This document shows positions 2,794 through 34,072 of a DNA stretch of 64,000 bases, piece after piece. The stretch spans positions 9,314-73,313 of the forward strand of contig JAHJTG010000008.1 of assembly GCA_018829965.1 (NCBI GenBank), in the 5' to 3' direction. This stretch comes from Patescibacteria group bacterium. Lineage in GTDB: Bacteria > Patescibacteriota > Minisyncoccia > Minisyncoccales > Staskawiczbacteraceae. Made by a program: the position numbers and the translations under genes. Every line of letters starts with the position of its first letter. Within the stretch, counting starts at the first letter, position 1. The notes under the pieces were generated by a model. The model had not been told where the DNA came from and searched no databases. It worked only from the letters and a program-made list of their open reading frames with translations.

Positions 2794-4207
2794 CACTCTT
2801 ATAAGGAAAAAACAGGAGTTCAAACCCCTAAAAGACAAGGGGGTCGGAATATACTCTTGCGGACCGACGGTATATTGGTATCAACATATCGGAAATTTAA
2901 GGTCTTATATTTTTAGCGACATTCTGAAAAGAGTTTTGGAATATGACGGATATAAAACAAAGCATGTAATGAATATTACTGATGTCGGACATCTAACCTC
3001 TGATGCTGATTCAGGCGAAGATAAAATGGAAAAAGCAGCAACAAAAGAAGGAAAAAGTGCAAAAGAGATTTCCAATTATTACTGGAAAATATTCCGCGAT
3101 GATTTTAAGAAACTGAATATTATTGAGCCAGATATCTGGTGCAAAGCAACAGAACATATAAAGGAACAGGTTGATTTAATAGAAAAACTTGAAGAAAAAG
3201 GATTTACCTATAAAACAGCTGACGGAATATATTTTGATACTTCAAAGTTTAAAAACTATGGCCAATTAGCTAAAAAAAACATCGAGGGGATAGAGTCTGG
3301 AAAAAGAGTGAAAATGCGAGATAAAAAGAATCCAACTGATTTTGCCTTATGGAAGTTTTCTGAAAAGCCAGGGATAAGGCAACAAGAATGGAAAAGTCCA
3401 TGGGGAGTAGGATTCCCAGGTTGGCATATTGAATGCTCGGCAATGTCAATGAAATACTTGGGCGAAACCTTTGATATTCACACTGGCGGAGAAGACCATA
3501 TCTCAATACACCATACAAATGAAATCGCTCAATCAGAAGCTAGCACTGGCAAGAAGTTCGTTAACTTCTGGCTACATGGCGCTTTTCTAACCTTTAAAGG
3601 AGAAAAAGTAAGCAAAAGCAAAGGCGGTCTCTATACTATTTCAGGGCTTGAGGAAAAAGGGTTCAATCCCCTCGCCTATCGCTATCTATGTTTAACCGCG
3701 CATTACAGAAGTCCTTTAGGTTTTAACTTAGACAGTTTAAAGAGCGCGGAAAACGCTTACGATAGGTTAAAAAATATCGTTCAAGAGATTAAGAATGACA
3801 AAAAGATTCACCCCGTTAGAAGTCCGATGCGCTTACGCATCGGCAGCCGCCTTTGGCGACTTACTTCTAACGGGGTAAACGAAAAATATTTAAATGATTT
3901 TAAGAACGCAATCAATGACGATTTAGATATGCCAAAAGCAATAGCTATTTTATGGAATCTAATAAGAGATAAAAATGCTGTAGGAAAATTAGGAACAATT
4001 AAAGAAATGGATAAAGTTTTAGGTTTGGATTTGCTGAAAAAAGAAAAAAAAGAAATACCGGCAGCAATTAAGAAACTAGCGATAGAAAGGGAAAAAGCAA
4101 GAAAAAACAAAGATTGGCAGAAAGCTGACGAGTTGAGAAAACAAATTGAAAAATCAGGTTATTTAATAGAAGATACTGAAAACGGACCAAAATTAAGAAG
4201 AAAATAG
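2777..4207 (+). CDS. cysS: Cysteinyl-tRNA synthetase (carries an in-frame palindromic insert at 3810-3876)
   Basis: CGPTVY, HIGN (HIGH), WHIECS, KVSKS (KMSKS), C-terminal DALR-like helix bundle. Confidence 0.95.
3810..3876. repeat. Palindromic insert (family F, CCCCGTTAGAA termini) inside cysS
   Basis: accccgttagaagt...acttctaacggggt inverted termini enclose the hairpin ccgatgcgcttacgcatcgg. Translated as [23 protein letters not shown]. Confidence 0.8.
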
Positions 4208-20129: not shown

Positions 20130-20194
20130 AAACTAAGTTTTCGTTTAATTATTTTACCCTGTTAGAGGTTTTATGTAAACAAAAAGAGCGCTAT

Positions 20195-20305
20195 TGTGGC
20201 AACTACCTACTTTCGCGACAAAATCACTATCATCGGCCTTAGAGTATTTCACTTCCGAGTTCGGAATGGGATCGGGTGGGACAACTCTAGTATAGTCGCC
20301 ACAGC
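20195..20305 (-). rRNA. rrf: 5S rRNA
   Basis: Reverse complement reads gcuguggcgacuauacuagaguugucccacccgaucccauuccgaacucggaagugaaauacucuaaggccgaugauagu..., the canonical 5S core. Confidence 0.9.
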
Positions 20306-20697
20306 AACGCTCTTTTTTAAACCCAGTTAAATAATTTTGCTTTTTCAAAATTAATGCAAAGCATTATTTAACGAGGTAAAGAATCAAAATAAAATAATGA
20401 ATAGCTAAAATCTGTATCTATCCTTATTCTTCCGCCTAAACTTTCTTGCGAAAATCTTGGCGGAGAAGCAAAGAATTTAACAATGATTTATTAGTACTTC
20501 TCGGCTGAATGGGTTGCCCCACTTACACCTGAAGCCTATCAACCTTGTCATCTTCAAGGAATCTAGGAGTTCTAATCTTGAGGTGGGTTTCGCGCTTAGA
20601 TGCTTTCAGCGCTTATCCCTTCCTAACTTAGCTACCCAGCAATGCTCCTGGCGGAACAACTGGTACACCAGAGGTTAGTCCAACCCGGTCCTCTCGT

Positions 20698-21461
20698 CAC
20701 ATAATCTTCTATCACTAGAAGTGTAGACTATATCTTCATCCCGCCTAGCGGGAGTCGGCGTATTATGATGGGTTTAAAGCCACCATCCTTCCTTAAAATA
20801 ATGATTTTAAGAAAAAGTCGTTACGGGGTCATATCTAAAATTTTTAATAATTCTTGCTTTGTTTTCTTTTTCTTGGCTATATAGTTATCCGATTGAATGG
20901 CTATAATATAATTTACTATCTTTTTTAATTCGTTTTTTGTTAAACAATTTTTCCTTTTCTTAGAAAAAAGACAAACAGCTTTATATAGTGCTTTCGCCTG
21001 CTTTTGTTTAAAACGAATAAAAGGTATTAAATCTTTTAGGATATTTTCTATTTGCTTGAATCCATTTATTCTTAATTCACTCATTCCGTCGTTTCTTTGA
21101 GAAAAATATCCTATACCAAGTTTTTTCTTTATCCAATGGAGTGGTTTTTCGTGACGACTATCTTGATAAAAACAGATAGTAGCCATTAAGCGCCAATTTG
21201 TTTTACCATCTTTGCGCTTCTTAATTTGAAGCATTAAGCTTCCGTCTCCATCGAGAAAACCTGCGATATAAGCTAAATTTATTTTAGATTGACTTCCCAC
21301 GGTATTATCTTAATAATTATAATTTCTGGTCCTCAAGTAAATTGTACCATAATTAATGGACCGATTGCAATTATGGTTATCAACGAACCAGATATATTAA
21401 GGTTTCACCGTTATTAGCCGAATTGTCATCGTGGATTACTCCACGAAGTAGCAAATTTCTT
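20698..21461 (-). mobile_element. Group I intron in the 23S sarcin-ricin loop
   Basis: Exons rejoin as CCCUAGU|ACGAGAGGACCGG. The intron follows U and ends in G. It contains AAUACCGUGGGAAG, CCCCGUAA.., and GAUAUAGUCU (S element). Confidence 0.85.
20821..21300 (-). CDS. LAGLIDADG homing endonuclease, single-motif (I-CreI-like, presumably homodimeric); GTG start
   Basis: LAYIAGFLDGDGSL near the N-terminus; 159 aa; lies wholly inside the intron. Confidence 0.9.
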   Translation of the reverse strand: MGSQSKINLAYIAGFLDGDGSLMLQIKKRKDGKTNWRLMATICFYQDSRHEKPLHWIKKKLGIGYFSQRNDGMSELRINGFKQIENILKDLIPFIRFKQKQAKALYKAVCLFSKKRKNCLTKNELKKIVNYIIAIQSDNYIAKKKKTKQELLKILDMTP

Positions 21462-21523
21462 ACTAGGGTCAGAGCCTCTCAAAACTCTACGATCGCGGTA
21501 GATAAGGACCAACCTGTCTCACG

Positions 21524-22214
21524 CATATTTGTCATTTATTACTAAATGTATGGACTATACCACTACCCAAATTAATTGGGTAATCGACGTTTTAGCCGCC
21601 GTTAGGCGACTCCGACCGATTAAGGTCAAGTCTCTACGGGGTCGATGTATACACCTTTCGATTCTTTGAATAATTTAATTCACGAAAAGTATCAATTAAT
21701 TTAGCAAGTTTATTAAAATCTTTCTGGCATTTAACTTTACTTTTTTGAACAATAATTTTTTTCAGGAGATTTATTTGAGCTTTCTTCATTAATACATACG
21801 GGCCAACGAGTCCGATAAATTTATTTATCCCCTCTTGGGTCCCAATAATATATTCGAGAATTCCATCTTTTCTAACCCTTAAATATCCTAAATTAATTAA
21901 AGCACAAACTTTAGCAAAATTATTTTGGTTTTTCTGTGATTGGAATAACACAATGTAATTTACAACTTGGAAACCATACTTATAAGTTTTGTTTGGTTTT
22001 AGTTGCGCATATACACTACCATCCCCATCAAGAAATCCAGCCAAATATGATCTTTGTGTTTGCGAAATTAATTTTTTCATACACGACTTCCCTCGGTATT
22101 ATCCTATCATACGACAGATTATAATGAAAGGACTTCACCGATATGAGTCGATTTATTCACTGTAATATTACTATTACAGGCCGCCTAGCTTGTTAACAGA
22201 TCAAGCTTTAGTCG
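21524..22214 (-). mobile_element. Group I intron in 23S domain V (after ~U2593, the I-CreI-type site)
   Basis: Exons rejoin as GGGUUCAAACCGU|CGUGAGACAGGUUGG. Core elements AAUACCGAGGGAAG, CCCCGUAGAGACUUGAC, GGUAUAGUCC. Confidence 0.85.
21634..22080 (-). CDS. LAGLIDADG homing endonuclease, I-CreI family
   Basis: SYLAGFLDGDGSVYAQLKPNKTYKYGFQV aligns by eye with I-CreI YLAGFVDGDGSIIAQIKPNQSYKFKHQL; 148 aa. Confidence 0.9.
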   Translation of the reverse strand: MKKLISQTQRSYLAGFLDGDGSVYAQLKPNKTYKYGFQVVNYIVLFQSQKNQNNFAKVCALINLGYLRVRKDGILEYIIGTQEGINKFIGLVGPYVLMKKAQINLLKKIIVQKSKVKCQKDFNKLAKLIDTFRELNYSKNRKVYTSTP

Positions 22215-22307
22215 ACGGTTTGAACCCAGCTCACGTAACACTTTAATTGGCGAACAGCCAAACCCTTGGGAGCGGCTTCACCCCCAGGATGTGTTGAGCC
22301 GACATCG

Positions 22308-22592
22308 CTGTCGGTAATTTTTCTCTCCTTACAGAGAGGTTCGGACTATATCTTCACCCTTTCTCAATAAGAAAGGGGCTGGCGTGTTAGCTCTCCAATT
22401 TTTTGGAGAACTCCGACTATTAAAAGTCAAGTCTCTACAGGGTTATAACCCAATCTTTTTAAGAATTGAGTTAAACTTCCCACGGTATTATCGTTTAGTT
22501 TTACTAATTTTACCATATGAACTAAGTACGATTCCACCGTTATAAGCCAGATTTTTGGTATAGCATTACTGCTATAGCACCCCGATTTGTTA
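22308..22592 (-). mobile_element. ORF-less group I intron in 23S domain V (after ~U2500) with a homing-endonuclease-gene relic
   Basis: Exons rejoin as GUUCGGCACCU|CGAUGUCGGCUC. Keeps AAUACCGUGGGAAG, CCUGUAGAGACUUGAC, GAUAUAGUCC. Only an 18-codon remnant (MGSLTQFLKRLGYNPVET*) lies between them. Confidence 0.8.
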
Positions 22593-23209
22593 AGGTGCCG
22601 AACAGAGCCGTCGCTATGGACGCTCGGGCTCTACCAGCCTGTTATCCCCGGAGTAGCTTTTGGTTGATGATCTTTCGCGGTTCTAATAACCACGATCGGT
22701 TCACTAAGTTCTGGTTTCCCAACTGCGCGACATATCCGTCTTGCAGTAAAGCCGGCATTTGGCTTTGCCCTATCGCTCCGATTTCCATCCGGAGCTAGCC
22801 GACCTTATAAACGCCTCCATTACCTTTTAGGAGGCAAGTGCCCCACTTAAACTGCCCATTAAACACTGTCTCCGCCTAAGGCGGATTAGAATCAGGGTTT
22901 TTAAAGGATGGTGTTTCATCGGCGACTCCACCCTGTCCGAAAACAAGGTTTCAAAGTCTCCCATCTACGCTACGCATTAAAAACCAAAACTCAATATCTA
23001 ACTACAGTAAAGCTTCCGGGGTCTTTCCGTCTAGCCGCGATTAACCGGCATCTTCACCGGTATTGCATTTTCACCGGGCTCCTCGTTGAGACAGTTCTCT
23101 AGTCGTTAAGCCATTCATGCGGGCCGGAACTTACCCGGCAAGGGATTACGCTACCTTTGGACGGTTATAGTTACCGCCGACGTTCACTGGTGCTTCAATC
23201 AATGAGCCC

Positions 23210-23320
23210 CACTCCGCTCCTTACTTCGTAAGAGCTTCGAAGGGGCAGGTATTCTTTTTTTCAGAATACTTGTCCTGCGTAGCTTTTTTTACGAAACAAA
23301 AAGCGAAGTAGGACCCTCAA
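23210..23320 (-). repeat. 23S hairpin insertion 1 (domain IV, ~E. coli 1860 region)
   Basis: ~110 extra nt relative to E. coli, with nested hairpins (caggtattc-ttttttt-cagaatacttg). Confidence 0.6.
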
Positions 23321-23427
23321 CTTTAACATTCCAGCACTGGTCAGGCTTCACCCCCTATACATCCTCTTACGAGTTAGCAGAGAGCTGTGTTTTTGATAAA
23401 CAGTCGCTAGAGATACGTTAGCTGCGT

Positions 23428-23572
23428 CCCACCGCACCTCGCTATGCTCGGTACTACCGCGGATTAACACGGATTTTAACTGATTAACACGGATAAAATA
23501 TCCGTATGAATCCAGTCGTATCCGCATGTATCCGTGGTACCAAACGCAGTGAGGTACGGTAGGAAGGCCATA
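23428..23572 (-). repeat. 23S hairpin insertion 2 (variable helix ~E. coli 1730)
   Basis: Outer arms cctcgctatgctcgg / ccaaacgcagtgagg enclose CGGAT-rich modules (family I, also at 38245-38300). Confidence 0.7.
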
Positions 23573-24712
23573 TTGCGAACTTACGGCCGCTTTTTTGCCG
23601 AGTTCCTTAACGAGGAATCACCCGTTCATCTTGGCACACTTACGCCGACCCACCTGTGTCGGTTTACGGTACGGTTCCCATTTTTTTAACCCTACGAGCT
23701 TTTCTAGACAACGCGCTCATCCGAATCGCCAGTGCCGAAGCACCAACTTTTCTCATTCCTTAGATTACTCCTAAGAACAAGAACATAAATCCAATAATTT
23801 GCTCGGACTACTGTGTTGTGTCACTCTTCAGAAAAAAATGGAAGGGACGGAATATTAACCGTCTAACCATTAGGTACGCCTTTCGGCTTCCCCTTAGGAC
23901 CGCCTAACCCTTGGCTGATTGCCATTGCCAAGGAACCCTTGGGTTTTCGATGTCCCGGTATTTCACCGAGATTGCGGTTACTCATGCCAACATTCTCTCT
24001 TCTTAACGCTCCACCAGACCTCACAGTCTAGCTTCGCAGCGATAAGAATGCTCTCCTACCACGCATAAAAACCTGAGTTTCTATGCATCCATATCTTCGG
24101 TATTAAGCTTTAGTCCCGATGAATCTTCGGCGCACTTTGCCTATATAGGACAGTGAGTTGTTACACACTCTTTAAAAGATAGCTACCTCTAAGCTAACTT
24201 CCTGCCTGTAAAGGGCAAAATACTTCCTTAATCTACACTTAGCTTAATTTTGGGACCTTAGATGATGATCTGGACTGTTCTCCTTACGACCATGGAGCTT
24301 AGCCCCCACAGTCTAACTGCCTTTTTGACGATGCTGGTATTCGGAGTTTAATTAGAATATCTGAGCGAAGCCCAAGAAATTCTATTTAGTGCTCTACCCC
24401 CAGCACCTAAACAAAAGACGCTAGCCCTAAAGCTATGTCGGAGAGAACCAGCTATTACCAAGCTCGATTAGCTTATCACTTCTTACCACAGGTCATCCCA
24501 GAGTATTGCACGGCTCAAGGGTTCGGACCTCCCCCGCTCTTTCGAGAGGGTTCATCCTGCCCATGGCAAGCTCGCCTGGCTTCGGGTCTCAACCACTCAG
24601 CTTAATTGTTTGCGCTATTAACGCTCGCTTTCGCTATGCCTCCACCCCGTAAGGGTTTAGACTAGCTGAGTAACTGAACTCGTTGGCTCGTTCTGCAAAA
24701 AGCACGCCATCA

Positions 24713-24898
24713 CCAGCCACATCTCGCTGCGCTCGATGTGTCTGGAAACCCTAAATCCTAAATCCGAAATCCTAAACAATAACTAAAATCCAAAATCAAA
24801 AACTTATTTTAAATTTGAAATTTAGAATTTGGAATTTGTTTAGAGTTTCGTGTTTAGTGCTTAGAATTTCCGCATCGAACAAAGTGAGATGCGGCCAG
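24713..24898 (-). repeat. 23S hairpin insertion 3 (helix 25 region, ~E. coli 540)
   Basis: Outer arms catctcgctgcgctcgatg / catcgaacaaagtgagatg enclose inverted heptamer arrays of family C. Confidence 0.7.
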
Positions 24899-25286
24899 CT
24901 CTGACTCGTTGTAAGCAAATGGTTTCAGGTTCTATTTCATCGGGGTCGCCCCCCTACTTTTCACCTTTCCCTCACGGTACTGGTTCACTATCGGTAATAT
25001 TGAGTATTTAGCCTTGGCCGTATAGTTCGGCCTGATTCCTGCCAGGTTATCATTCCCGACAGTACTTAAGTAAAATAGCAAGGAGCGTAAAGTCGTTTTC
25101 GTCTACAGGACTATTACCTTCTATGGTCACCCTTTCCAGGGTTATTTGACTAACGAAAAATTTATTCTTGCAGAGCAAAAATAAATTTACACTTTACCAA
25201 AATGTTCTCCCTCGGATAGAATCCAGCACTCTTTAACGTTTCAAAAAGTACTGGATGCTCCCGACGCTAAATCCTTGCAACCCCAA

Positions 25287-25425
25287 TCGCTCGCGCCTCG
25301 CTATGCTCGTCGCTTCGCTCTCCTACCAATTACGAATTTTTTCGAATTACGAATATTCGTAATTAGTTTAAATTGGTAATTCGTAGGAAGAGTAAGTGCC
25401 GAACGCAGTAAGGCACGAACGAATG
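25287..25425 (-). repeat. 23S hairpin insertion 4 (domain I, ~E. coli 270 region)
   Basis: Outer arms gcctcgctatgctcg / cgaacgcagtaaggc enclose ACGAAT modules of family B. Confidence 0.7.
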
Positions 25426-25471
25426 GTTTGGGCTCTTCCCTTTTCGCTCGCCACTACTAAGGGAATAACTG

Positions 25472-25747
25472 GTCCTACATCTCACAAATTCCGCTAAATT
25501 TAGAAACGAAATAATGCGCTAAATTCAAGACGCGATGACGAAACGCATAAGTGAAACGATGCGTTGAGGAAGAGCCTCGCAGAAGTTAGCCATTATTTCG
25601 CTTCCCTTTCGGGCGGGCGAATTCTGGACATATTCTTTGTTGCTCGTCGCTCACGTATCGCGTTGCTTATACGCTGTCGCTCCTCGCGTCGCGAATCTGT
25701 CGCAGAATTCGCTTCGCTAAATTAGTGCAATTTGTGAGATGCAGGAC
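25472..25747 (-). repeat. 23S insertion 5: 276-nt element with 19-bp terminal inverted repeats (domain I, ~E. coli 215)
   Basis: gtcctacatctcacaaatt ... aatttgtgagatgcaggac (18/19 complementary), with an internal gcgaattctg/cagaattcgc hairpin. No ORF and no group I core. Confidence 0.75.
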
Positions 25748-26333
25748 ATTTGTTCTCTTTTCCTCTGGGTACTGTGATGTTTCGCTTCCCCAGGTCTACC
25801 CCTAACCTTGCGGTCAGGTAATCCCGTTCTGCGGGATTGGGTTGCCCCATTCAGAAACCTCCGGATCAAAGGTTGCTAGCCACCTCCCCGAAGCTTATCG
25901 CAGGCACGCCACGTCTTTCATCGCCTCAATATTCCAAGGCATCCACCATTTGCCTATAAAATTATTTTCTTTGCGTAAGTTTATTCAACAATATAAATAC
26001 TGCTGAATGAATAGATACAGATTTTAGATATCTATTACTATTATATTTTTAGATGATTCTTTACTCTGTTAAAAAAAGACCCCTGTCTAAAGTTTAACAG
26101 AGTGGCCTAATTATATCTTTTTAAAAAAAGCAAGATTATAATTAGGGTTGTATTTTCAAAGTTCTTGATAAATATACTATTCTTAAAAAATTAAAAACCG
26201 CCTAGTTAAAGCGGTCCATCAGACATATACCCGCCTGCATCGCCTGTGGCGAAAGCCACTGCGGGCAGGCAAAAACTCGGAGTTTAACCGCTTCTTTTTC
26301 TAAAAATGGTTTTAATATTTATCATGTAAGGTT

Positions 26334-26559: not shown

Positions 26560-27240
26560 CTATTTAATCTTTCTCTTTAAGTTCTCAATTGCTTGAGCTG
26601 CAGCATCTTTTCCACCTAAACCGAAAGCCAACATAACCGAACCGGCAATAGCGGCAACAATACCATAAACTATACCCTTGTATAGAATCTGGACTAAATC
26701 TGATTTTGGTAATAATTGATCTAAGATCATGAATATTAAGAAAATCCAAATTGTCCATCTTACGATAGAGGCTGCTAAATGAGCGTAACCGATTTTCATT
26801 TTCTCAACTGTTGCTCTTACTAACTTTTCTACGATATCAGCAATAACTACACCGACTACAAAAATTAAAACAGCGATAATGATGTTTGGGATATAGTTTA
26901 AGATATCCCTTAGAAGTTCTCCAAATTTAGTTAAATTTAGAATATCAACTGTTAATAATAATGTGACGATTACAAATATCCATTTAACGATAGCTCCAAT
27001 AAAAGCAGACGGATCCACTTTTATATCAGCTTTCTCAATGGCTTTCTGCCAACCTTCTTTTTCAAAAAGACGGTTGAATTTTAGTCCCTTCAAAAGTTCG
27101 GTTATAAATCTGCCGATTCCGACAGAGATGATATAGCCGATAACGAAGACAATTATTGCTATTATAAGTTGAGGAAGAAACGAAACCAATTCTTTAAGAA
27201 ATGGTTGTATAATTGTTACGTACCATTCTGGTGTTACCAT
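26560..27240 (-). CDS. Polytopic membrane protein (repeated TM-helix type, possibly mechanosensitive-channel-associated)
   Basis: ~6 TM helices with internal repeats; no catalytic motif. Confidence 0.5.
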   Translation of the reverse strand: MVTPEWYVTIIQPFLKELVSFLPQLIIAIIVFVIGYIISVGIGRFITELLKGLKFNRLFEKEGWQKAIEKADIKVDPSAFIGAIVKWIFVIVTLLLTVDILNLTKFGELLRDILNYIPNIIIAVLIFVVGVVIADIVEKLVRATVEKMKIGYAHLAASIVRWTIWIFLIFMILDQLLPKSDLVQILYKGIVYGIVAAIAGSVMLAFGLGGKDAAAQAIENLKRKIK

Positions 27241-27411
27241 ATTTATTTTAGGTTTAATTATCGATTTATTAATAAATAATTCGACCTTTATAAATTAGGC
27301 TTCTTGTCTGCCTGCGGTAGATCTCCCAAAGGGAGACAACCAGCCTAATCGTTAAACATTATTTTATTATGTGCTTATCTGCCTAAGAATCAACCCCTTA
27401 TGTGGATAATT

Positions 27412-28500
27412 CTATCCATGCTTTATCTCAATCACATCTCCGTCTTGAATGATATATTCCTTTCCTTCTGTTCTTATTAATCCCCTCTCTCTTGCCTTAG
27501 AAAAACCGCCGGCTTCAATCAAATCTTTCCAATTAATAACCTCGGCTTTAACAAACGTCTTTTCAAAATCGCTATGGATTACTCCTCCTGCTTGCGGAGC
27601 CATCTCCCCTCTTTTTATTGTCCAAGCACGCGTCTCATCTGTCCCAGTTGTCAAAAAAGTAATTAGACTTAACAGCTCGTAAGATTTTTTAACTAAAATA
27701 TCTGTTTCTGACTCTGGAGGAAATCCCAAAGAGATTCTTTCTTCTTTTAAGAAACCTGCTGTTTCAAATTCTGAAGCGATGTCTACTATTAAATACGGCC
27801 AACTTGTCTCGCCAGAATTGGCTGGGTTATTCTTTTTAAAAACCTCTAAAGTATTTTGATCCACCTCCTCATCTTTTCCGTTTAAAAGATACAGCCTTGG
27901 TTTTAATGTTAATAATTGAAAACTATCCAAAATTTTCTTCTCTTCATCTGTAAAGCTTTGCTCAACTAATATTTTTTCTTCAGTTAAAAATTCTTTTGCT
28001 TTTTTTAATACTTCCATTTCCTTAATCGCCTCCTTCCTATTAGCCCTTACATCACCCTCCAAGCCATGTATTCTTTTCGTAATAGTATCTAAATCTTTTA
28101 AAATTAATTCTACGTCTAAGATCCCTTTATCTCTTAATGGACTTATTGATTCTTGCGTGTTAATAATATCGGAATTAGAAAAAGCGCGAAGGATATATAT
28201 GATTGCATCTGTTTCACGAATATTTGCTAAAAACTTGTTTCCCAAGCCTTCGCCTTCGCTCGCCCCTTTTACCAAGCCGGCGATATCAACAAACTCAATG
28301 GTTGTATAAATCTTCTTTGCAGAACTAGTTAATTCAGCTAATTTATCAACTCTTTCGTCTGGAACCAAAACAACCCCTACATTAGGGTCAATTGTACAAA
28401 AAGGATAATTAGCAATATCCACTTCCTTTTTGGTTAATGTTTTAAATAGAGTGGACTTACCTACATTCGGTAATCCTACAATGCCTATACTAAGTGCCAT
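27412..28500 (-). CDS. ychF: Ribosome-binding ATPase YchF
   Basis: G1 GLPNVGKST, NYPFCTIDPN, DIAGLV.GAS.G.GLGN.FL, C-terminal TGS-like domain. Confidence 0.95.
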   Translation of the reverse strand: MALSIGIVGLPNVGKSTLFKTLTKKEVDIANYPFCTIDPNVGVVLVPDERVDKLAELTSSAKKIYTTIEFVDIAGLVKGASEGEGLGNKFLANIRETDAIIYILRAFSNSDIINTQESISPLRDKGILDVELILKDLDTITKRIHGLEGDVRANRKEAIKEMEVLKKAKEFLTEEKILVEQSFTDEEKKILDSFQLLTLKPRLYLLNGKDEEVDQNTLEVFKKNNPANSGETSWPYLIVDIASEFETAGFLKEERISLGFPPESETDILVKKSYELLSLITFLTTGTDETRAWTIKRGEMAPQAGGVIHSDFEKTFVKAEVINWKDLIEAGGFSKARERGLIRTEGKEYIIQDGDVIEIKHG

Positions 28501-28529
28501 TTATAAATTTTTAAAATTATTTTTTTATA

Positions 28530-28883
28530 TTAAAACCTATAAATATTGCCCTCCGATGGAGTTTCAATATTAGTATTTGCTAAAACTTTTTTTATTCTCT
28601 CTGCTTCATTTTCAATTATTTCCCCGTCGTATTCTCCACTATGACTATGCGCTCCACTATTTTCATATGAAGCAAACTTCTGATCTAAATGAAGATTGAA
28701 GATAAACTCGTTATGGTCCTCATCTTTTTTTATAAACACATGGAATCTCGGGTAACCATATCCCCTGCTTAAATCCTTAACAAGGCTTTCTTCGCCGTTC
28801 TCGCTTTTTCTGCCAATCTTATATCCAATCTTCTTCGCCATATTTACAATAGTTTCGTTAGTGTTTTTAACTATAAATTTCAT
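28530..28883 (-). CDS. Hypothetical protein (117 aa; start moved to Met66 of the tracked ORF)
   Basis: The ORF-track N-terminus reads through tRNA-Ala and repeat DNA. MKFIVKN... begins 8 nt downstream of the tRNA. Confidence 0.5.
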   Translation of the reverse strand: MKFIVKNTNETIVNMAKKIGYKIGRKSENGEESLVKDLSRGYGYPRFHVFIKKDEDHNEFIFNLHLDQKFASYENSGAHSHSGEYDGEIIENEAERIKKVLANTNIETPSEGNIYRF

Positions 28884-28891
28884 ATTATTTA

Positions 28892-28962
28892 TGGACCCTG
28901 CGAGAATCGAACTCGCATCTCCTCGTTGCAAACGAGGTGTGCTACCACTATACCAAGGGCCC
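28892..28962 (-). tRNA. tRNA-Ala (anticodon UGC)
   Basis: Acceptor GGGCCCU/AGGGUCC with the G3:U70 identity pair; anticodon stem CCUCG/CGAGG with loop UUUGCAA; T arm GCGAG-UUCGAUU-CUCGC. Confidence 0.85.
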
Positions 28963-28965
28963 ACC

Positions 28966-29060
28966 AAAGCTATCGAGAATCTTCGATTTCTTTCAGAAAT
29001 CGGGACAAATGTCCCGATGGCTGTTGCCATCGCGGATGCTCGATTTTGCTCGGCAAAATC
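28966..29060. repeat. Family A module cluster (GTCCCGAT / TCGAGnATCnTCGA words)
   Basis: atcgagaatcttcgat, tttctttcagaaatcgggac, gtcccgatggctgttgccatcg, cgattttgctcggcaaaatcg: concatenated small hairpins. Confidence 0.75.
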
Positions 29061-29698: not shown

Positions 29699-30477
29699 CA
29701 TGCTATTCCCCTATATCGCTATAAGGCATGGACTATATCATCATCCTTTCACAAAATATTTTTGACTTTACTGGATGGTAAGAATTTACAATTTTAGCAA
29801 ATCTCTCGTGATGTTTAGTAGAAACAAATATTCTCCAATAATCAGGGTCAACTTTTTTACTCGGATTATGGATTTTTCCAGTTTCTATCTTTAAACTTTT
29901 GAGAAGTAACTTTAATTGCTTGATTTTGCTTAAATCCTTTTGGACTAACTGAATATAAAATCTGTCTTTTGTATGAGGAACGCCACCTTCGGCGTCAAAA
30001 AATCCTTTTACATAAAACAATTTTTCATAATAGTTATCCAAATTTATAGGATTAAATTTGAAATCTAAGTCTTTACAAAGTGTCTCTAAAACATACATAT
30101 TTCTATCCTTTCCCTCTTTGTAAATCCATGATTTGCAATTAATTTTACCTAGCAAAATTTGTAAATTTTCCAACCACTGCTTATTTTTCTGGGAGAATCT
30201 AATTCTCTTTCCTTTGTTTAAAGAGGCATCATGAATCGCTCCATTTAAATAAGCTATAATCTCATATTTTGTGGTAGGAGTTCGGCGTGTAGTCTCTGAG
30301 GGGTCAATTCTAATTTTATTAGAACGACTTCCCTGCTGATTGTCTGCACTAGAAACATTTTCACTCATATTATCTTATTATAATATGAGTAGTCCTAGAT
30401 TCACAGATGTTCCAGCATACAGCCAACTTTTTCTCTAAGGGTTACCCCTATGAGGTCGCAACATGCAGATTGCACTG
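29699..30477 (-). mobile_element. Group I intron in 16S after U1498 (decoding centre, inside the 1492R primer site)
   Basis: Exons rejoin as GGGGCUAAGUCGU|AACAAGGCACGG. ACAAUCAGCAGGGAAG and CCCCUCAGAGACUAC lie 5' of most of the ORF; GAUAUAGUCC lies 3' of it. Confidence 0.85.
29733..30368 (-). CDS. LAGLIDADG homing endonuclease (double-motif)
   Basis: IIAYLNGAIHDAS and VKGFFDAEGGV motifs. The tracked N-terminus reads through intron core elements, so the true start is uncertain. Confidence 0.8.
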   Translation of the reverse strand: MSENVSSADNQQGSRSNKIRIDPSETTRRTPTTKYEIIAYLNGAIHDASLNKGKRIRFSQKNKQWLENLQILLGKINCKSWIYKEGKDRNMYVLETLCKDLDFKFNPINLDNYYEKLFYVKGFFDAEGGVPHTKDRFYIQLVQKDLSKIKQLKLLLKSLKIETGKIHNPSKKVDPDYWRIFVSTKHHERFAKIVNSYHPVKSKIFCERMMI

Positions 30478-30893: not shown

Positions 30894-31713
30894 CATATTG
30901 ATCTATAATTTCTTATAGTATGGACTATACCATCTTCCATCCGCCTGAGGCGGATTAGGAGACCAGCGTTTAATGATAGGTTATATCATTAAGTTTTCTC
31001 GCCTTTAGAGAAAACTAAGTCTCTACGGGGTATAAAAACTAATTTTTGTAATTTTATCGAATAATTATAAATTTTTTCTAAAAATTCTCTTGCCTGGTAT
31101 CGCGAGATATAAAGGCAAAATGTCTTTGCTGTTTTGTAGTAATAAATTTTTGTATTACTAATTCCTATCCTTAAAAGAAGACTTTTATCAATTTCTGCTT
31201 CATTTTTATTTCCATATACTATCCTGCAATCATTTCTAAAGTTCTTATCGATTGAACCGTCTCCATCAAACCTTCCTGCAAAATATGCATTAATTAAATT
31301 ATCTTTTTCTAATTTAATTAAATTATTTCGTGCCTCTCTAAATTCTCTCAGGAATGGACGGCTATTAACAAAAATATGATTTCTATTAAATTTTATCCTA
31401 TCTTCAGAAAAAAACTTCAATAGAAAATCTTTAAACTTGGCTATCAAAGCAGGGTCTACATTACTTAGACCAATCGAACTTGACCACCAATAACTATCTG
31501 CACACCAAAGTCCTAAGATATAAGAATCTTCTTCTCTAGAGAAAAAATTACAAAAATTAGTTTTTATACTTCCCACGGTATTGCCATTAATTATTATATT
31601 TTAACATAATAATTAGAAGGTTTCACCGTTATGAGCTGGTTTTTTACCGTATTAAAATAAATTAGTACGGGGCATTTCACTAAAAATTACTTTTTAGTGG
31701 GTCGTTATAACAC
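30894..31713 (-). mobile_element. Group I intron in 16S helix 34 (after ~U1060)
   Basis: Exons rejoin as GGUGCUGCAUGGUU|GUCGUCAGCUCGUG. Core elements AAUACCGUGGGAAG, CCCCGUAGAGACUUAG, GGUAUAGUCC. Confidence 0.85.
30989..31576 (-). CDS. LAGLIDADG homing endonuclease (double-motif); GTG start
   Basis: YILGLWCADSYWW and AYFAGRFDGDGSI motifs; 195 aa. Confidence 0.85.
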   Translation of the reverse strand: MGSIKTNFCNFFSREEDSYILGLWCADSYWWSSSIGLSNVDPALIAKFKDFLLKFFSEDRIKFNRNHIFVNSRPFLREFREARNNLIKLEKDNLINAYFAGRFDGDGSIDKNFRNDCRIVYGNKNEAEIDKSLLLRIGISNTKIYYYKTAKTFCLYISRYQAREFLEKIYNYSIKLQKLVFIPRRDLVFSKGEKT

Positions 31714-31981: not shown

Positions 31982-32961
31982 CATCTTGTAGTTTTTTCTT
32001 ATTTCTTCGATTACTCGAAGGATCGGACTATATCATTTTCTGAAGTTTTTCCATTTGTTTTTCTTTTCAGTAATATATTTTTCTACTACTGCTTTAGAAA
32101 AACCTGTCAATTCACTAACTTCAGAAATCCAGCGTTGTTGTAAATCATGGTCTTTGTAAATAATCAAGACCTTCGGTAGCATTTCTGCCACTTTTATATG
32201 CGGCATTATAATCCGCAAAAACTTCTTTAACTCTTCGCTTGAGCGAATCCATAAACGATAATATATTCTTTCTTCATTCATCCATTTTCTAGTTATTTTA
32301 CCAATATGAACATTTATGTCCCATACTTTTTTTAAGTAATTAGACAATAATTTTTGCTCTTCATAAGAAAAACAATCTGTACAAAATACTCCCTTCCTTC
32401 CATTACCTATTATAGATCCATCATCAAGCCACCATATCGCTAAAGATAAAGGAGTTATTGCATTAAGCCACTTACGGCTAATTTTAAATACTCCTTTTTT
32501 ATGAGTTAAATCATATAACTCTGTTAATTCTGGTATTGCTACGCTTTGATATCGCAATTTTTGACCGCCAAATCCATCTTTTATTTCTGATTTCCAAAAA
32601 TAGTTTTCCCCGGAAATTTCCTTTAATTCATTTACTTTCCAGAAAAAATATTCCTTTTGCTTGATAGAATGACGGAAAGAAAAACGAGCATTTTTATAAT
32701 TATCGTTAATCTTCAGCGATCCATCGCCTAGCAAAGAACCAAGAATAATATCTTTGCAATTTTTAGACAAAAATGAATTTTTCATTTTCTATCTTTTTGA
32801 CTTACATAGTCTCTACGGGGTCGCTATCTTAAAAAGACGCGACTTCCCTCGGGATTATCCATCCGACTAAAATGGGTTTCCCCGATACAGCTAGATGCTC
32901 ACCATATTGTCACCAATATGGAGGACACCATTTAGTCTGTTAATTTCACAGACAAGGATTT
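31982..32961 (-). mobile_element. Group I intron in the 16S 790 loop (after U793, inside the 806R primer site)
   Basis: Exons rejoin as GGAUUAGAU|ACCCUUGUAGUCCACGC. AAUCCCGAGGGAAG and CCCCGUAGAGACUAUG precede the ORF; GAUAUAGUCC follows it. Confidence 0.85.
32033..32785 (-). CDS. LAGLIDADG homing endonuclease (double-motif, with C-terminal helical extension)
   Basis: IILGSLLGDGSL and LAIWWLDDGSI motifs; 250 aa. Confidence 0.9.
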   Translation of the reverse strand: MKNSFLSKNCKDIILGSLLGDGSLKINDNYKNARFSFRHSIKQKEYFFWKVNELKEISGENYFWKSEIKDGFGGQKLRYQSVAIPELTELYDLTHKKGVFKISRKWLNAITPLSLAIWWLDDGSIIGNGRKGVFCTDCFSYEEQKLLSNYLKKVWDINVHIGKITRKWMNEERIYYRLWIRSSEELKKFLRIIMPHIKVAEMLPKVLIIYKDHDLQQRWISEVSELTGFSKAVVEKYITEKKNKWKNFRK

Positions 32962-33239: not shown

Positions 33240-34072
33240 CGAATAACGAAAAATTATTCGTTTTGGACTATATCATCACCTCGCTTCAGCGAGGGTTCGG
33301 CGTCTGATGATGGGTTCAAATACCACCATCTCATCCACTTAAGGATTCAGTCTCTGAGGGGTTAAAGCACAATAAGGTAATCTTTTTGAAAAACACGAAA
33401 TAATATTCGGAGAGATCAAATTTAAAAATTTATCTCTTCCTTTTGCCCCGATATATATTTCAGGATATCTTTTGCCTCTGCAAAGAGGCGTATGAATATT
33501 GGATTCTATTCCGAAGTTTTTCTTTAAAACCTCAACCAATAATTTATTCTCTTCGACGCTAAATGCATTTGTGCAAAAAGAAAAATTATAATGGTCTTTC
33601 GGTCTGAAATCTAAACTTCCATCGTCCATATACCATACAGCTAAACTTAATGGAGAAATTAATAACTCCTGAATGTTTTTTGGAACAATTTTCTTTCCAT
33701 TTTTATAAAATATTTCTTTGTATCTAGAGATATCTTCTAAAAATTTCGTTTGAAAATACCATTGCTTATTATCTTTCCTCTGTTTTGGCGAACTTTTGCA
33801 TAAATTTTCAAAGCAAGAATATAACCAGAATACATATTCTTTATGTGCTTCTGATTGTTTTATTCTCAAGCATTTTCCATCTATCCAAGCATCGCCCAAA
33901 AGAGTGCCGATAATAATTTCGTGTTGTTTCTTTGTCATTACCTAATTATACTCAACTTCCCTGCTGATTGTCACATTAAAATTATCAACTTTGTGATAAA
34001 GGAGCATTAATGTGCTTTCCAGCATATAAGCCGAATTTTGATTCTGCGCCCGCCAACCTTCATGGGTTGGCC
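33240..34072 (-). mobile_element. Group I intron in the 16S 530 loop (after U516, inside the 515F primer site)
   Basis: Exons rejoin as CCUAAUUCUGU|GCCAGCAGGAGCGGUAAUAC. Core elements ACAAUCAGCAGGGAAG, CCCCUCAGAGACUGAAUCC, GAUAUAGUCC. Confidence 0.85.
33339..33938 (-). CDS. LAGLIDADG homing endonuclease (double-motif)
   Basis: IIIGTLLGDAWI and LAVWYMDDGSL motifs; 199 aa. Confidence 0.9.
   Translation of the reverse strand: MTKKQHEIIIGTLLGDAWIDGKCLRIKQSEAHKEYVFWLYSCFENLCKSSPKQRKDNKQWYFQTKFLEDISRYKEIFYKNGKKIVPKNIQELLISPLSLAVWYMDDGSLDFRPKDHYNFSFCTNAFSVEENKLLVEVLKKNFGIESNIHTPLCRGKRYPEIYIGAKGRDKFLNLISPNIISCFSKRLPYCALTPQRLNP

Follow-up and report, generated by a model that had tools for sequence, protein, structure and literature searches.

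Does the 691-nucleotide (nt) insertion in the 23S rRNA gene of an uncultured patescibacterium represent a mobile group I intron with an I-CreI-type endonuclease, and what does it add to the systems already known? The insertion occupies positions 21524-22214 (minus strand) of the stretch of DNA analyzed here, which comprises 64,000 nt of a Patescibacteria group bacterium (GenBank assembly GCA_018829965.1, contig JAHJTG010000008.1, positions 9,314 to 73,313 of the forward strand) and is called the window below. The host is a Staskawiczbacteria-like, uncultured member of the Parcubacteria within the candidate phyla radiation (CPR), and its rRNA operon appears to be single-copy. A preliminary description had proposed an intron at the I-CreI-type 23S site that encodes a 148-amino-acid (aa) I-CreI-family endonuclease. 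We consider it very probable that the single 23S gene of the window contains a mobile group I intron of the L2593 lineage, inserted after E. coli position U2593, which encodes an I-CreI-family endonuclease and would be capable of both splicing and homing.

Insertion site and ribozyme of the L2593 intron

The exons of the 23S rRNA gene (~20450 to 25969, minus strand) were mapped by BLASTN with E. coli rrlH (L001). The coordinates of the Rfam LSU_rRNA_bacteria match (22161-25969, model positions 1-2925) were discarded because they misplace the 3' end of the gene inside the L2593 intron. Three introns break that alignment, and the exons were therefore mapped against rrlH; the true 3' third of the gene extends through these three introns to ~20450. 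The resulting exon blocks are colinear across the gene, with E. coli positions 1878-2500 corresponding to window positions 23207-22593, 2501-2595 to 22307-22213, 2594-2660 to 21523-21458, and 2657-2800 to 20697-20554. In the E. coli numbering, U2593 and C2594 were read directly, with U2585 and A2602 as landmarks. The insertion separates these two nucleotides and is located in the peptidyl-transferase region, where it interrupts a conserved single-stranded segment of domain V.

The spliced exons read ...GGGUUCAAACCGU/CGUGAGACAGGUUGG, where the slash here and below marks the insertion point, and the intron is bounded as ...GGGTTCAAACCGT/CGACTAAAGC......ACAAATATG/CGTGAGACAGGTTGG, with AATATG as its end. 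The receiving segment, interrupted after U2593, is GU/CGUGAGACAG. Because CG occurs at both intron ends, the boundary is uncertain by 0-2 nt from the sequence alone; the group I rules, which demand U before the 5' splice site and G as the last intron base, place it exactly at 22214..21524. The upstream exon (E. coli 2501-2593; 22215..22307, minus strand) is 87% identical to E. coli 2501-2595 and contributes the left part of the predicted homing site with its last 8 nt, CAAACCGU. The right part is formed by the first 14 nt, CGUGAGACAGGUUG, of the downstream exon (E. coli 2594 to ~2656; 21459..21523, minus strand; BLASTN mapping). Overall, the 23S exons of the window are ~90% identical to those of a Staskawiczbacteria genome (L003) and 72% identical to those of E. 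coli. The coordinates, strand, junction, and peptide of the preliminary description are thus borne out, and the exon mapping confirms its placement of the insertion at the I-CreI-type site.

The secondary structure was drawn manually from the sequence and then tested on 58 distinct homologous introns, with the 3' partner strand shifted by 1-2 columns as controls. The insertion is a genuine group I intron with a complete core, comprising the paired regions (P) P1-P9 with P7.1 and P7.2. Six helices (P2, P3, P4, P6, P7, P9) are backed by covariation in the 58 homologues, and the shifted controls for these helices reached 1-49% canonical pairs overall. All intron features lie on the minus strand. 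The internal guide sequence GGCGGC (intron 30-35; 22180..22185) is nearly invariant in the aligned homologues. Its GCGG (intron 31-34) pairs with exon CCGU to form P1, with a U.G wobble at the splice site; an extension hairpin is also present. The P2 hairpin with its GUAA tetraloop (intron 36-55; 22160..22179) showed 90% canonical pairs versus 37-42% in the controls and double-sided changes in seven of its eight pairs. P3, built from AAUCGAC (intron 62-68; 22147..22153) and GUCGAUU (21582..21588), was 86% canonical versus 2-36% in the controls (compensatory pairs n=5). In the P4-P5 domain (intron 74-122; 22093..22141), P4 (UCGGU with ACCGA) was 100% canonical with double-sided compensatory changes in two pairs; P5 (UCCUUUCA with UGAUAGGA) reached 72% overall, its outer four pairs being conserved.

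P6 consists of GUCGUGUAU (intron 128-136; 22079..22087), which overlaps the AUG start codon of the intron open reading frame (ORF), and AUACA(U)CGAC (intron 565-574; 21641..21650). It was 96% canonical versus 21-48% in the controls (compensatory pairs n=7). An alternative P6 of AAGUC and GACUU was rejected, as GACU belongs to the invariant, bulged-A P7 and the strands given above covary instead. P7 is formed by G(A)GACU with its bulged A (21629..21634) and AGUCC (21552..21556), the latter preceded by the joining segment J8/7, and was 100% canonical among the homologues. Nearly invariant across the homologues were ACCCCGUAGAGACU at the P7 5' strand, CCCGUAGAGACU spanning J6/7 and P7, and GGUAUAGUCC in J8/7. 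The peripheral hairpins P7.1 (GACC with GGUC) and P7.2 (AGUCGCC with GGCGGCU), recognized from the sequence at 21594..21627, occur with variable length in most homologues and are missing in about ten. Covarying hairpins at P7.1, P7.2, and P8 (ACCCAA...UUGGGU; 21565..21581) were visible by eye in the homologues. A leuA-Halobacteria match in Rfam (21594-21611, 12.6 bits, E = 7.8) was dismissed, as it merely covers the P7.2 hairpin AGUCGCCUAACGGCGGCU. The P9 hairpin with a GUAA tetraloop (21533..21548) was 94% canonical versus 27-39% in the controls (compensatory pairs n=5). The intron ends in the terminal guanosine (omega-G, 21524..21524). Pairing of the exon-final U and the G-terminal intron hold in nearly all of 70 homologous introns.

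The ORF occupies the P6 loop and shares nucleotides with the ribozyme core at both ends, as the family alignment also shows. Its start codon overlaps the end of the P6 5' strand, and its last codons (..Y T S T P) constitute the P6 3' strand, which encodes ...YTST, and J6/7. The UAG stop codon lies inside P7, its G being the first P7 base. Hence, ACC CCG UAG followed by AGACU (within 21629-21650, minus strand) codes for T-P-stop and at the same time forms J6/7 and P7. The C-terminal LTP-stop was found in 112 of 120 relatives. In several I-CreI-type proteins, and in those of loci L057 and L068, the same RNA element is read one frame over as P-V-E-T, and the protein continues.

The encoded endonuclease and its relatives

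The ORF at 21634..22080 (minus strand) contains the peptide SYLAGFLDGDGSVYAQLKPNKTYKYGFQV and encodes a 148-aa single-motif LAGLIDADG homing endonuclease of the I-CreI family, as judged from Pfam, a PDB sequence search, and the predicted fold. The Pfam LAGLIDADG_1 match had an E-value of 9.8e-10 and 39.7 bits (cut-off 23.1 bits). Among PDB sequences, I-CreI scored best (3.5e-19, residues 11-146 on 10-145), followed by I-MsoI (~5e-13) and I-CvuI (~1e-10); the two-domain enzymes I-PanMI and I-SmaMI scored far lower. A chance ORF was excluded, since the PDB and Pfam matches are far beyond chance, and a pseudogene was likewise considered and rejected. The AlphaFold2 model (mean predicted local distance difference test score of 87) contains the helices H7-20, H49-62, and H82-95 and the strands E21-29, E37-47, E66-69, and E75-79. 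In a Foldseek search of the PDB with this predicted model, the top 46 chains were I-CreI (including engineered derivatives and the E-DreI chimera), I-MsoI, and I-CvuI; full-length chains had template modeling (TM) scores of 0.79-0.84 (0.82-0.84 for I-CreI, I-MsoI, and I-CvuI), compared with ~0.70 for the next family. The family assignment proposed earlier is therefore well founded in sequence, fold, and conserved residues.

The window protein is 34% identical to I-CreI, with one single-residue indel before the longer C-terminal tail of I-CreI (MAFFT alignment). Its single motif SYLAGFLDGDGS, with the catalytic D20, is invariant in sets of 34 and 69 homologues. D20, K28, N30, Y33, Q38, Q47, R68, R70, K98 (K99 in the window protein), S138, K139, and K142 are shared by I-CreI and all or nearly all of the bacterial relatives; Q47 and K98 belong to the active site. 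In I-CreI, K28, N30, Y33, Q38, and S40 read base pairs +/-8 to +/-10, and Q44, R68, and R70 read base pairs +/-3 to +/-5 (PMC1702487). The bacterial clade differs from I-CreI throughout by V44, A/V40, Y24, F/Y46, and E75 and lacks Arg at position 51; the window protein itself has V44, V40, F46, Y24, N51, and E76 in place of Q44, S40, T46, I24, R51, and D75. An engineered Q44V variant of I-CreI has been characterized and still cuts the wild-type site (PMC1635285). Selection on the protein was assessed by Nei-Gojobori ratios of nonsynonymous to synonymous substitution rates (dN/dS) between family members. The values ranged from 0.06 to 0.17, and pairs with unsaturated dS (0.36-0.43) gave an omega of 0.12. 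We conclude that the protein is under strong purifying selection.

The predicted 22-bp target in intron-less DNA is CAAACCGTCGTGAGACAGGTTG; relative to the I-CreI site CAAAACGTCGTGAGACAGTTTG, it contains only two substitutions, at -7 (A>C) and +8 (T>G). I-CreI cuts across the central GTGA, the top strand 5 nt and the bottom strand 1 nt downstream of the insertion point, and leaves 4-nt 3' overhangs. Most of the bacterial clade (46 of 69 loci) has the same target as the window; other hosts carry CAGACC...GGTCGG and similar variants. Thus, the suggestion that the element is a natural specificity variant holds insofar as the target does differ from that of I-CreI, but the difference is confined to two positions and is common to most of the clade.

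A search for relatives of the ORF returned 503 proteins at E<=1e-5 among 90%-identity clusters. Many of them are 148 aa long and 60-89% identical, and those with names derive from Candidatus Staskawiczbacteria and other Parcubacteria. An identical protein (P0001, 100%) is encoded on four other contigs, the longest of which, an 80-kb ENA metagenome contig, carries the same adjacent pair of LAGLIDADG_1 genes; on account of these records, an assembly artifact was rejected. We fetched six loci from species-representative genomes (single-sequence scan) and 80 metagenome loci (alignment-based scan). Both exon anchors were located in 71 loci, and in 70 of these the insertion that carries the ORF interrupts the sequence ...ACCGT/CGTGAGACAG at precisely this point. 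The proteins of this set, which includes Staskawiczbacteria and Nealsonbacteria genomes, are 42-92% identical. An insertion after U2593 is also present in L002-L006.

Some of these loci deserve separate mention. L003 (2948-3629), L008, and L010 carry a 1.2-kb L2593 intron with ~550 extra nt downstream of the ORF, and the extra stretch of L003 contains an antisense ORF of 101 aa (3114-3419). Contigs L005 and L006, labeled 'uncultured Pseudomonadales' and 'uncultured Gammaproteobacteria', have multi-intron 23S genes, with introns at L2532 and L2593 and at L1931, L1952, and L2593, respectively. Their longer exon blocks are ~71-76% identical to E. coli, and the window exons are 70-72% identical over comparable blocks; the taxonomic labels of both contigs look doubtful.

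With I-CreI as the query, 64 I-CreI-type proteins were obtained, the named ones from Chlamydomonas and Carteria. This search did not return the CPR clade, which we put down to the word prefilter of the search, as both groups align clearly. Five loci, among L089-L094, were fetched for three I-CreI-type proteins (80%, 58%, and 62% identical to I-CreI). Their exons, GGGTTCAAAACGT/CGTGAGACAGTTTGG, constitute the I-CreI homing site, and the L2593 intron between them is 871-1169 nt long. These introns share with the window intron UAUAUCGGUGAA (P4/J4-5), CCGAGGGAAG, CCCGUAGAGACU (J6/7-P7), and AUAGUCC (P7), as well as the P2 hairpin with a GUAA loop, an ORF that starts after the P6 5' strand, and the terminal G. 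The guides differ, with GCGU opposite exon ACGU in the I-CreI-type introns and GCGG opposite CCGU in the bacterial ones, which represents a compensatory P1 change at the sole 5'-exon position that differs between the two hosts. The ORF ends differ as well, as the window ORF stops inside P7 (..TP-stop), whereas I-CreI-type ORFs stop earlier or read through as PVET. I-CreI, encoded in the Cr.LSU intron of the Chlamydomonas reinhardtii chloroplast 23S gene, I-MsoI, and I-CvuI agree with the window enzyme in site, in the size and fold of the protein, and in the presence of a single motif; the hosts differ, the window intron residing in a CPR bacterium and that of I-CreI in a chloroplast.

The window protein is 34% identical to I-CreI, as noted, but 27% to the L2657 enzyme encoded in the same gene and 16-24% to L19xx enzymes. 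In a distance-based neighbor-joining tree with bootstrap, a crude method whose weak L2593 support should not be over-read, the L2593, L2532, and L2657 enzymes split from the L19xx enzymes at 100%. The bacterial L2593 enzymes formed a group at 67%, and a clade restricted to L2593 reached 17%, or 42% counting the long-branched L2532 enzyme. The joint L2593, L2532, and L2657 group is thus firmly recovered, and support for a strict L2593 clade is weak. The L2657 endonuclease of the same gene also matches I-CreI and I-MsoI best in the PDB (~3e-14), so the PDB rank alone is not diagnostic of L2593. The lineage assignment is based on four features taken together, namely site, higher identity, conserved contact residues, and shared ribozyme. 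On this basis, both the intron and its endonuclease are homologous to the I-CreI system, and the shared site, ribozyme core, ORF loop, and compensatory guide change uphold the earlier view of a bacterial member of the same lineage. The ORF does not fall in an unrelated LAGLIDADG clade, nor does the insertion lie outside the GU/CGUGAGACAG segment.

Probable mobility, a possible maturase role, and other explanations

Judged from their sequences, both the intron and the endonuclease look functional. By homology, the pre-rRNA would fold and bind guanosine in P7, and two transesterifications would excise the intron and yield intact 23S rRNA. The protein would act as a homodimer on intron-less CAAACCGTCGTGAGACAGGTTG and, by analogy with I-CreI, cut across the central GTGA with 4-nt 3' overhangs. 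Recombinational repair from an intron-bearing copy would then introduce the intron into the cut allele. Since the operon is apparently single-copy, a recipient allele could only be supplied by another cell or by incoming DNA. In addition, the protein may aid intron folding.

Several observations weigh against a splicing and homing intron of this kind. Splicing, cleavage, and dimerization of the window element are transferred from homologous systems. A genome with a single rRNA operon lacks a resident empty site, and purifying selection on the nuclease would require either frequent horizontal encounters or a second function. The I-CreI residues Q44, S40, T46, I24, and R51 are V, V, F, Y, and N in the window protein, so the contacts at some positions must differ from those of I-CreI. 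P10 is weak. Covariation of P7.1, P7.2, and P8 could not be scored reliably owing to variable length and MAFFT misalignment; for P8, the column count was 62%, and 84% at shift -1, weakened by register shifts in the alignment. Finally, the Rfam group I model (Intron_gpI, RF00028) gave 21.2 bits against a gathering threshold of 50 and covered the 3' part only (21532-21712), because the 447-nt ORF in the P6 loop (L6) interrupts the model.

The strongest competing explanation holds that the protein is kept mainly as a maturase and that homing is no longer selected, which would be compatible with residual nuclease activity. The dN/dS of ~0.1 is found in a lineage whose genomes mostly carry one rRNA operon (PMC11270868) and hence no intron-less allele within the cell, and the ORF and the ribozyme are physically interlocked via P6 and P7. 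According to a review, a LAGLIDADG protein from a Thermotoga 23S intron has maturase-like activity (PMC3984707). However, the catalytic and most DNA-reading residues, which are unnecessary for RNA binding, are invariant across 69 homologues. Furthermore, Tsurumaki et al. deduced horizontal spread by homing in the CPR, and another CPR LAGLIDADG protein is an active nuclease. We therefore regard a mainly maturase-driven retention as unlikely, although a maturase role may exist alongside homing and remains a live, non-exclusive alternative.

The remaining explanations fare far worse. It is highly improbable, and was already disfavored, that the gene is a decaying, non-functional remnant and only the ribozyme matters: homing endonuclease genes are expected to degenerate after intron fixation (the gain-degeneration-loss cycle), and ORF-less group I introns such as that at L2500 occur in the same gene, but the 148-aa frame is intact and free of frameshifts, dN/dS is 0.06-0.17, the catalytic residues are invariant, and the fold is predicted with confidence. 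A recent transfer between a green-algal chloroplast and a bacterium, in either direction, would fit the site, ribozyme core, and ORF location, which are those of I-CreI-type introns, and phylogenies in which bacteria and organelles are intermingled at each rDNA site (PMC1995217). Such a transfer is hardly credible given the I-CreI identity of only 34%, the separate, large group of bacterial L2593 proteins (67% bootstrap) with clade residues and the LTP-stop overlap, and the hundreds of relatives (42-92% identity) in 23S genes with bacterial-type exons, the named ones being Staskawiczbacteria, Nealsonbacteria, and other Parcubacteria. The 34% identity reflects an old divergence and is not evidence of recent exchange between organelles and bacteria. 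We attach equally little weight to the idea that the insertion is an intervening sequence removed by RNase III without exon ligation (fragmented 23S rRNA) or a retained insertion; such sequences are known in bacterial 23S genes, probably including those of the CPR, and the Rfam group I score is sub-threshold, but the insertion has a complete, conserved, and covarying group I core with the U.G splice pair and terminal G, and it interrupts a strictly conserved peptidyl-transferase strand and not a variable helix tip, with known intervening-sequence sites lying elsewhere (23IS2, 23IS4).

Companion introns, known L2593 systems, and implications

The window intron is accompanied by further insertions in the rRNA genes, which together harbor six endonuclease genes. 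A group I intron of 285 nt without an ORF (22308-22592, minus strand) follows E. coli U2500 in the 23S gene; its exons read GGCACCU/CGAUGUCGG, it ends in G, and it scores 65.9 bits with Rfam Intron_gpI, above the threshold. An insertion at 2500/2501 also occurs in L089-L094, where it contains a LAGLIDADG_2 ORF. The third 23S intron (~20698-21457, minus strand) lies inside the sarcin-ricin loop between ...CCCUAGU and ACGAGAGGACC, after U2656 by the U/G rule; its literature name is 2657. Its ORF (20821-21300, minus strand) encodes a 159-aa LAGLIDADG_1 protein, and L003 has the same L2657 intron. In domain I of the 23S gene, the Rfam alignment revealed extra insertions of ~279 nt, ~128 nt, and roughly 100 nt.

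The pieces of the 16S rRNA gene extend from ~30450 to ~34650 (minus strand). Four endonuclease ORFs were found in the 16S region, all on the minus strand: two of the LAGLIDADG_2 type (33339-33938 and 32033-32785) and two of the LAGLIDADG_3 type (30989-31576 and 29733-30368). Large gaps separate the 16S exon blocks and contain the first three ORFs, and the fourth is located just past the final block mapped (E. coli 1420, window 30544). The 16S and 23S genes are not contiguous, as the spacer (26560-29000, minus strand) contains tRNA-Ala(UGC) (28891-28963), a ychF-type GTPase gene (27412-28500), and a gene for a mechanosensitive-channel transmembrane (TM) helix domain (26560-27240), all on the minus strand. 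The 5S rRNA gene is at 20194-20303 (minus strand).

The CPR 2593 insertion class was reportedly first noted by Brown et al. in 2015. In cyanobacteria, L2593 introns with single-motif LAGLIDADG genes have been described for Thermosynechococcus elongatus, Synechococcus sp. C9, and S. lividus C1, where they cluster with introns of chloroplasts and mitochondria according to insertion site (Haugen et al. 2007, PMC1995217). These introns measure 744-748 nt, compared with 691 nt in the window, and encode single-motif endonucleases of 159-189 aa (PMC1995217). Their hosts belong to another phylum, and the comparison with the window was made by published description only; in these terms, the window intron matches their architecture, with a short P5, a P7.1/P7.2 extension, and a short P2 (PMC1995217).

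In the CPR, 82% of 23S genes contain insertions, and LAGLIDADG_1 genes predominate at positions 1917, 1931, 1952, 2593, 2604, and 2657 (Tsurumaki et al. 2024, PMC11270868). In that study, proteins from the same site clustered together across distant hosts, and the authors inferred horizontal spread by homing; the rRNA insertions were absent from transcripts, and the genomes usually had one rRNA operon (PMC11270868). I-ShaI, a CPR LAGLIDADG protein from another 23S site, dimerizes and cleaves its own insertion site (PMC11270868). It stems from site 23IS7 (1917, 1931, or 1952) and resembles I-CeuI, and no enzyme of the 2593 class was assayed in that study (PMC11270868). With its CPR host, group-I-like insertion, and single-domain LAGLIDADG_1 protein, the window element belongs to '23IS12' (position 2593) of this catalogue, into which the companion insertions at ~2500 and 2657 and the LAGLIDADG_2 and LAGLIDADG_3 insertions of the 16S gene also fit (PMC11270868). 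The element is thus a typical, so far uncharacterized addition to the documented 2593 class and does not represent a new kind.

As one more intact example in a well-populated class with hundreds of relatives in public assemblies, the element has modest practical value, namely as a natural I-CreI-family enzyme that probably reads CAAACCGTCGTGAGACAGGTTG. It carries V44 naturally, which recalls the engineered Q44V I-CreI, and the enzyme may serve as a comparison point for work on meganuclease specificity. The proposed use for tracing intron exchange between organelles and bacteria finds little support, since the divergence is old (34% identity) and the pattern was published in 2007 (PMC1995217); no new question of organelle-bacterium exchange arises from this locus.

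A further, tentative thought concerns the CPR L2593 enzymes as a group, which might constitute a distinct functional variant of the I-CreI scaffold, with an ORF hard-wired into the ribozyme and specificity residues of their own. We consider this rather unlikely. If it were true, V44, A40, Y24, F46, and E75 would provide a natural specificity set unlike that of I-CreI on a near-identical target. A ribosome on the ORF would melt P6 and P7, so that translation and splicing would be mutually exclusive and hence coupled; alternatively, the protein would double as an essential maturase. Either the coupling or the maturase role could explain why dN/dS is as low as ~0.1 despite a single rRNA operon.

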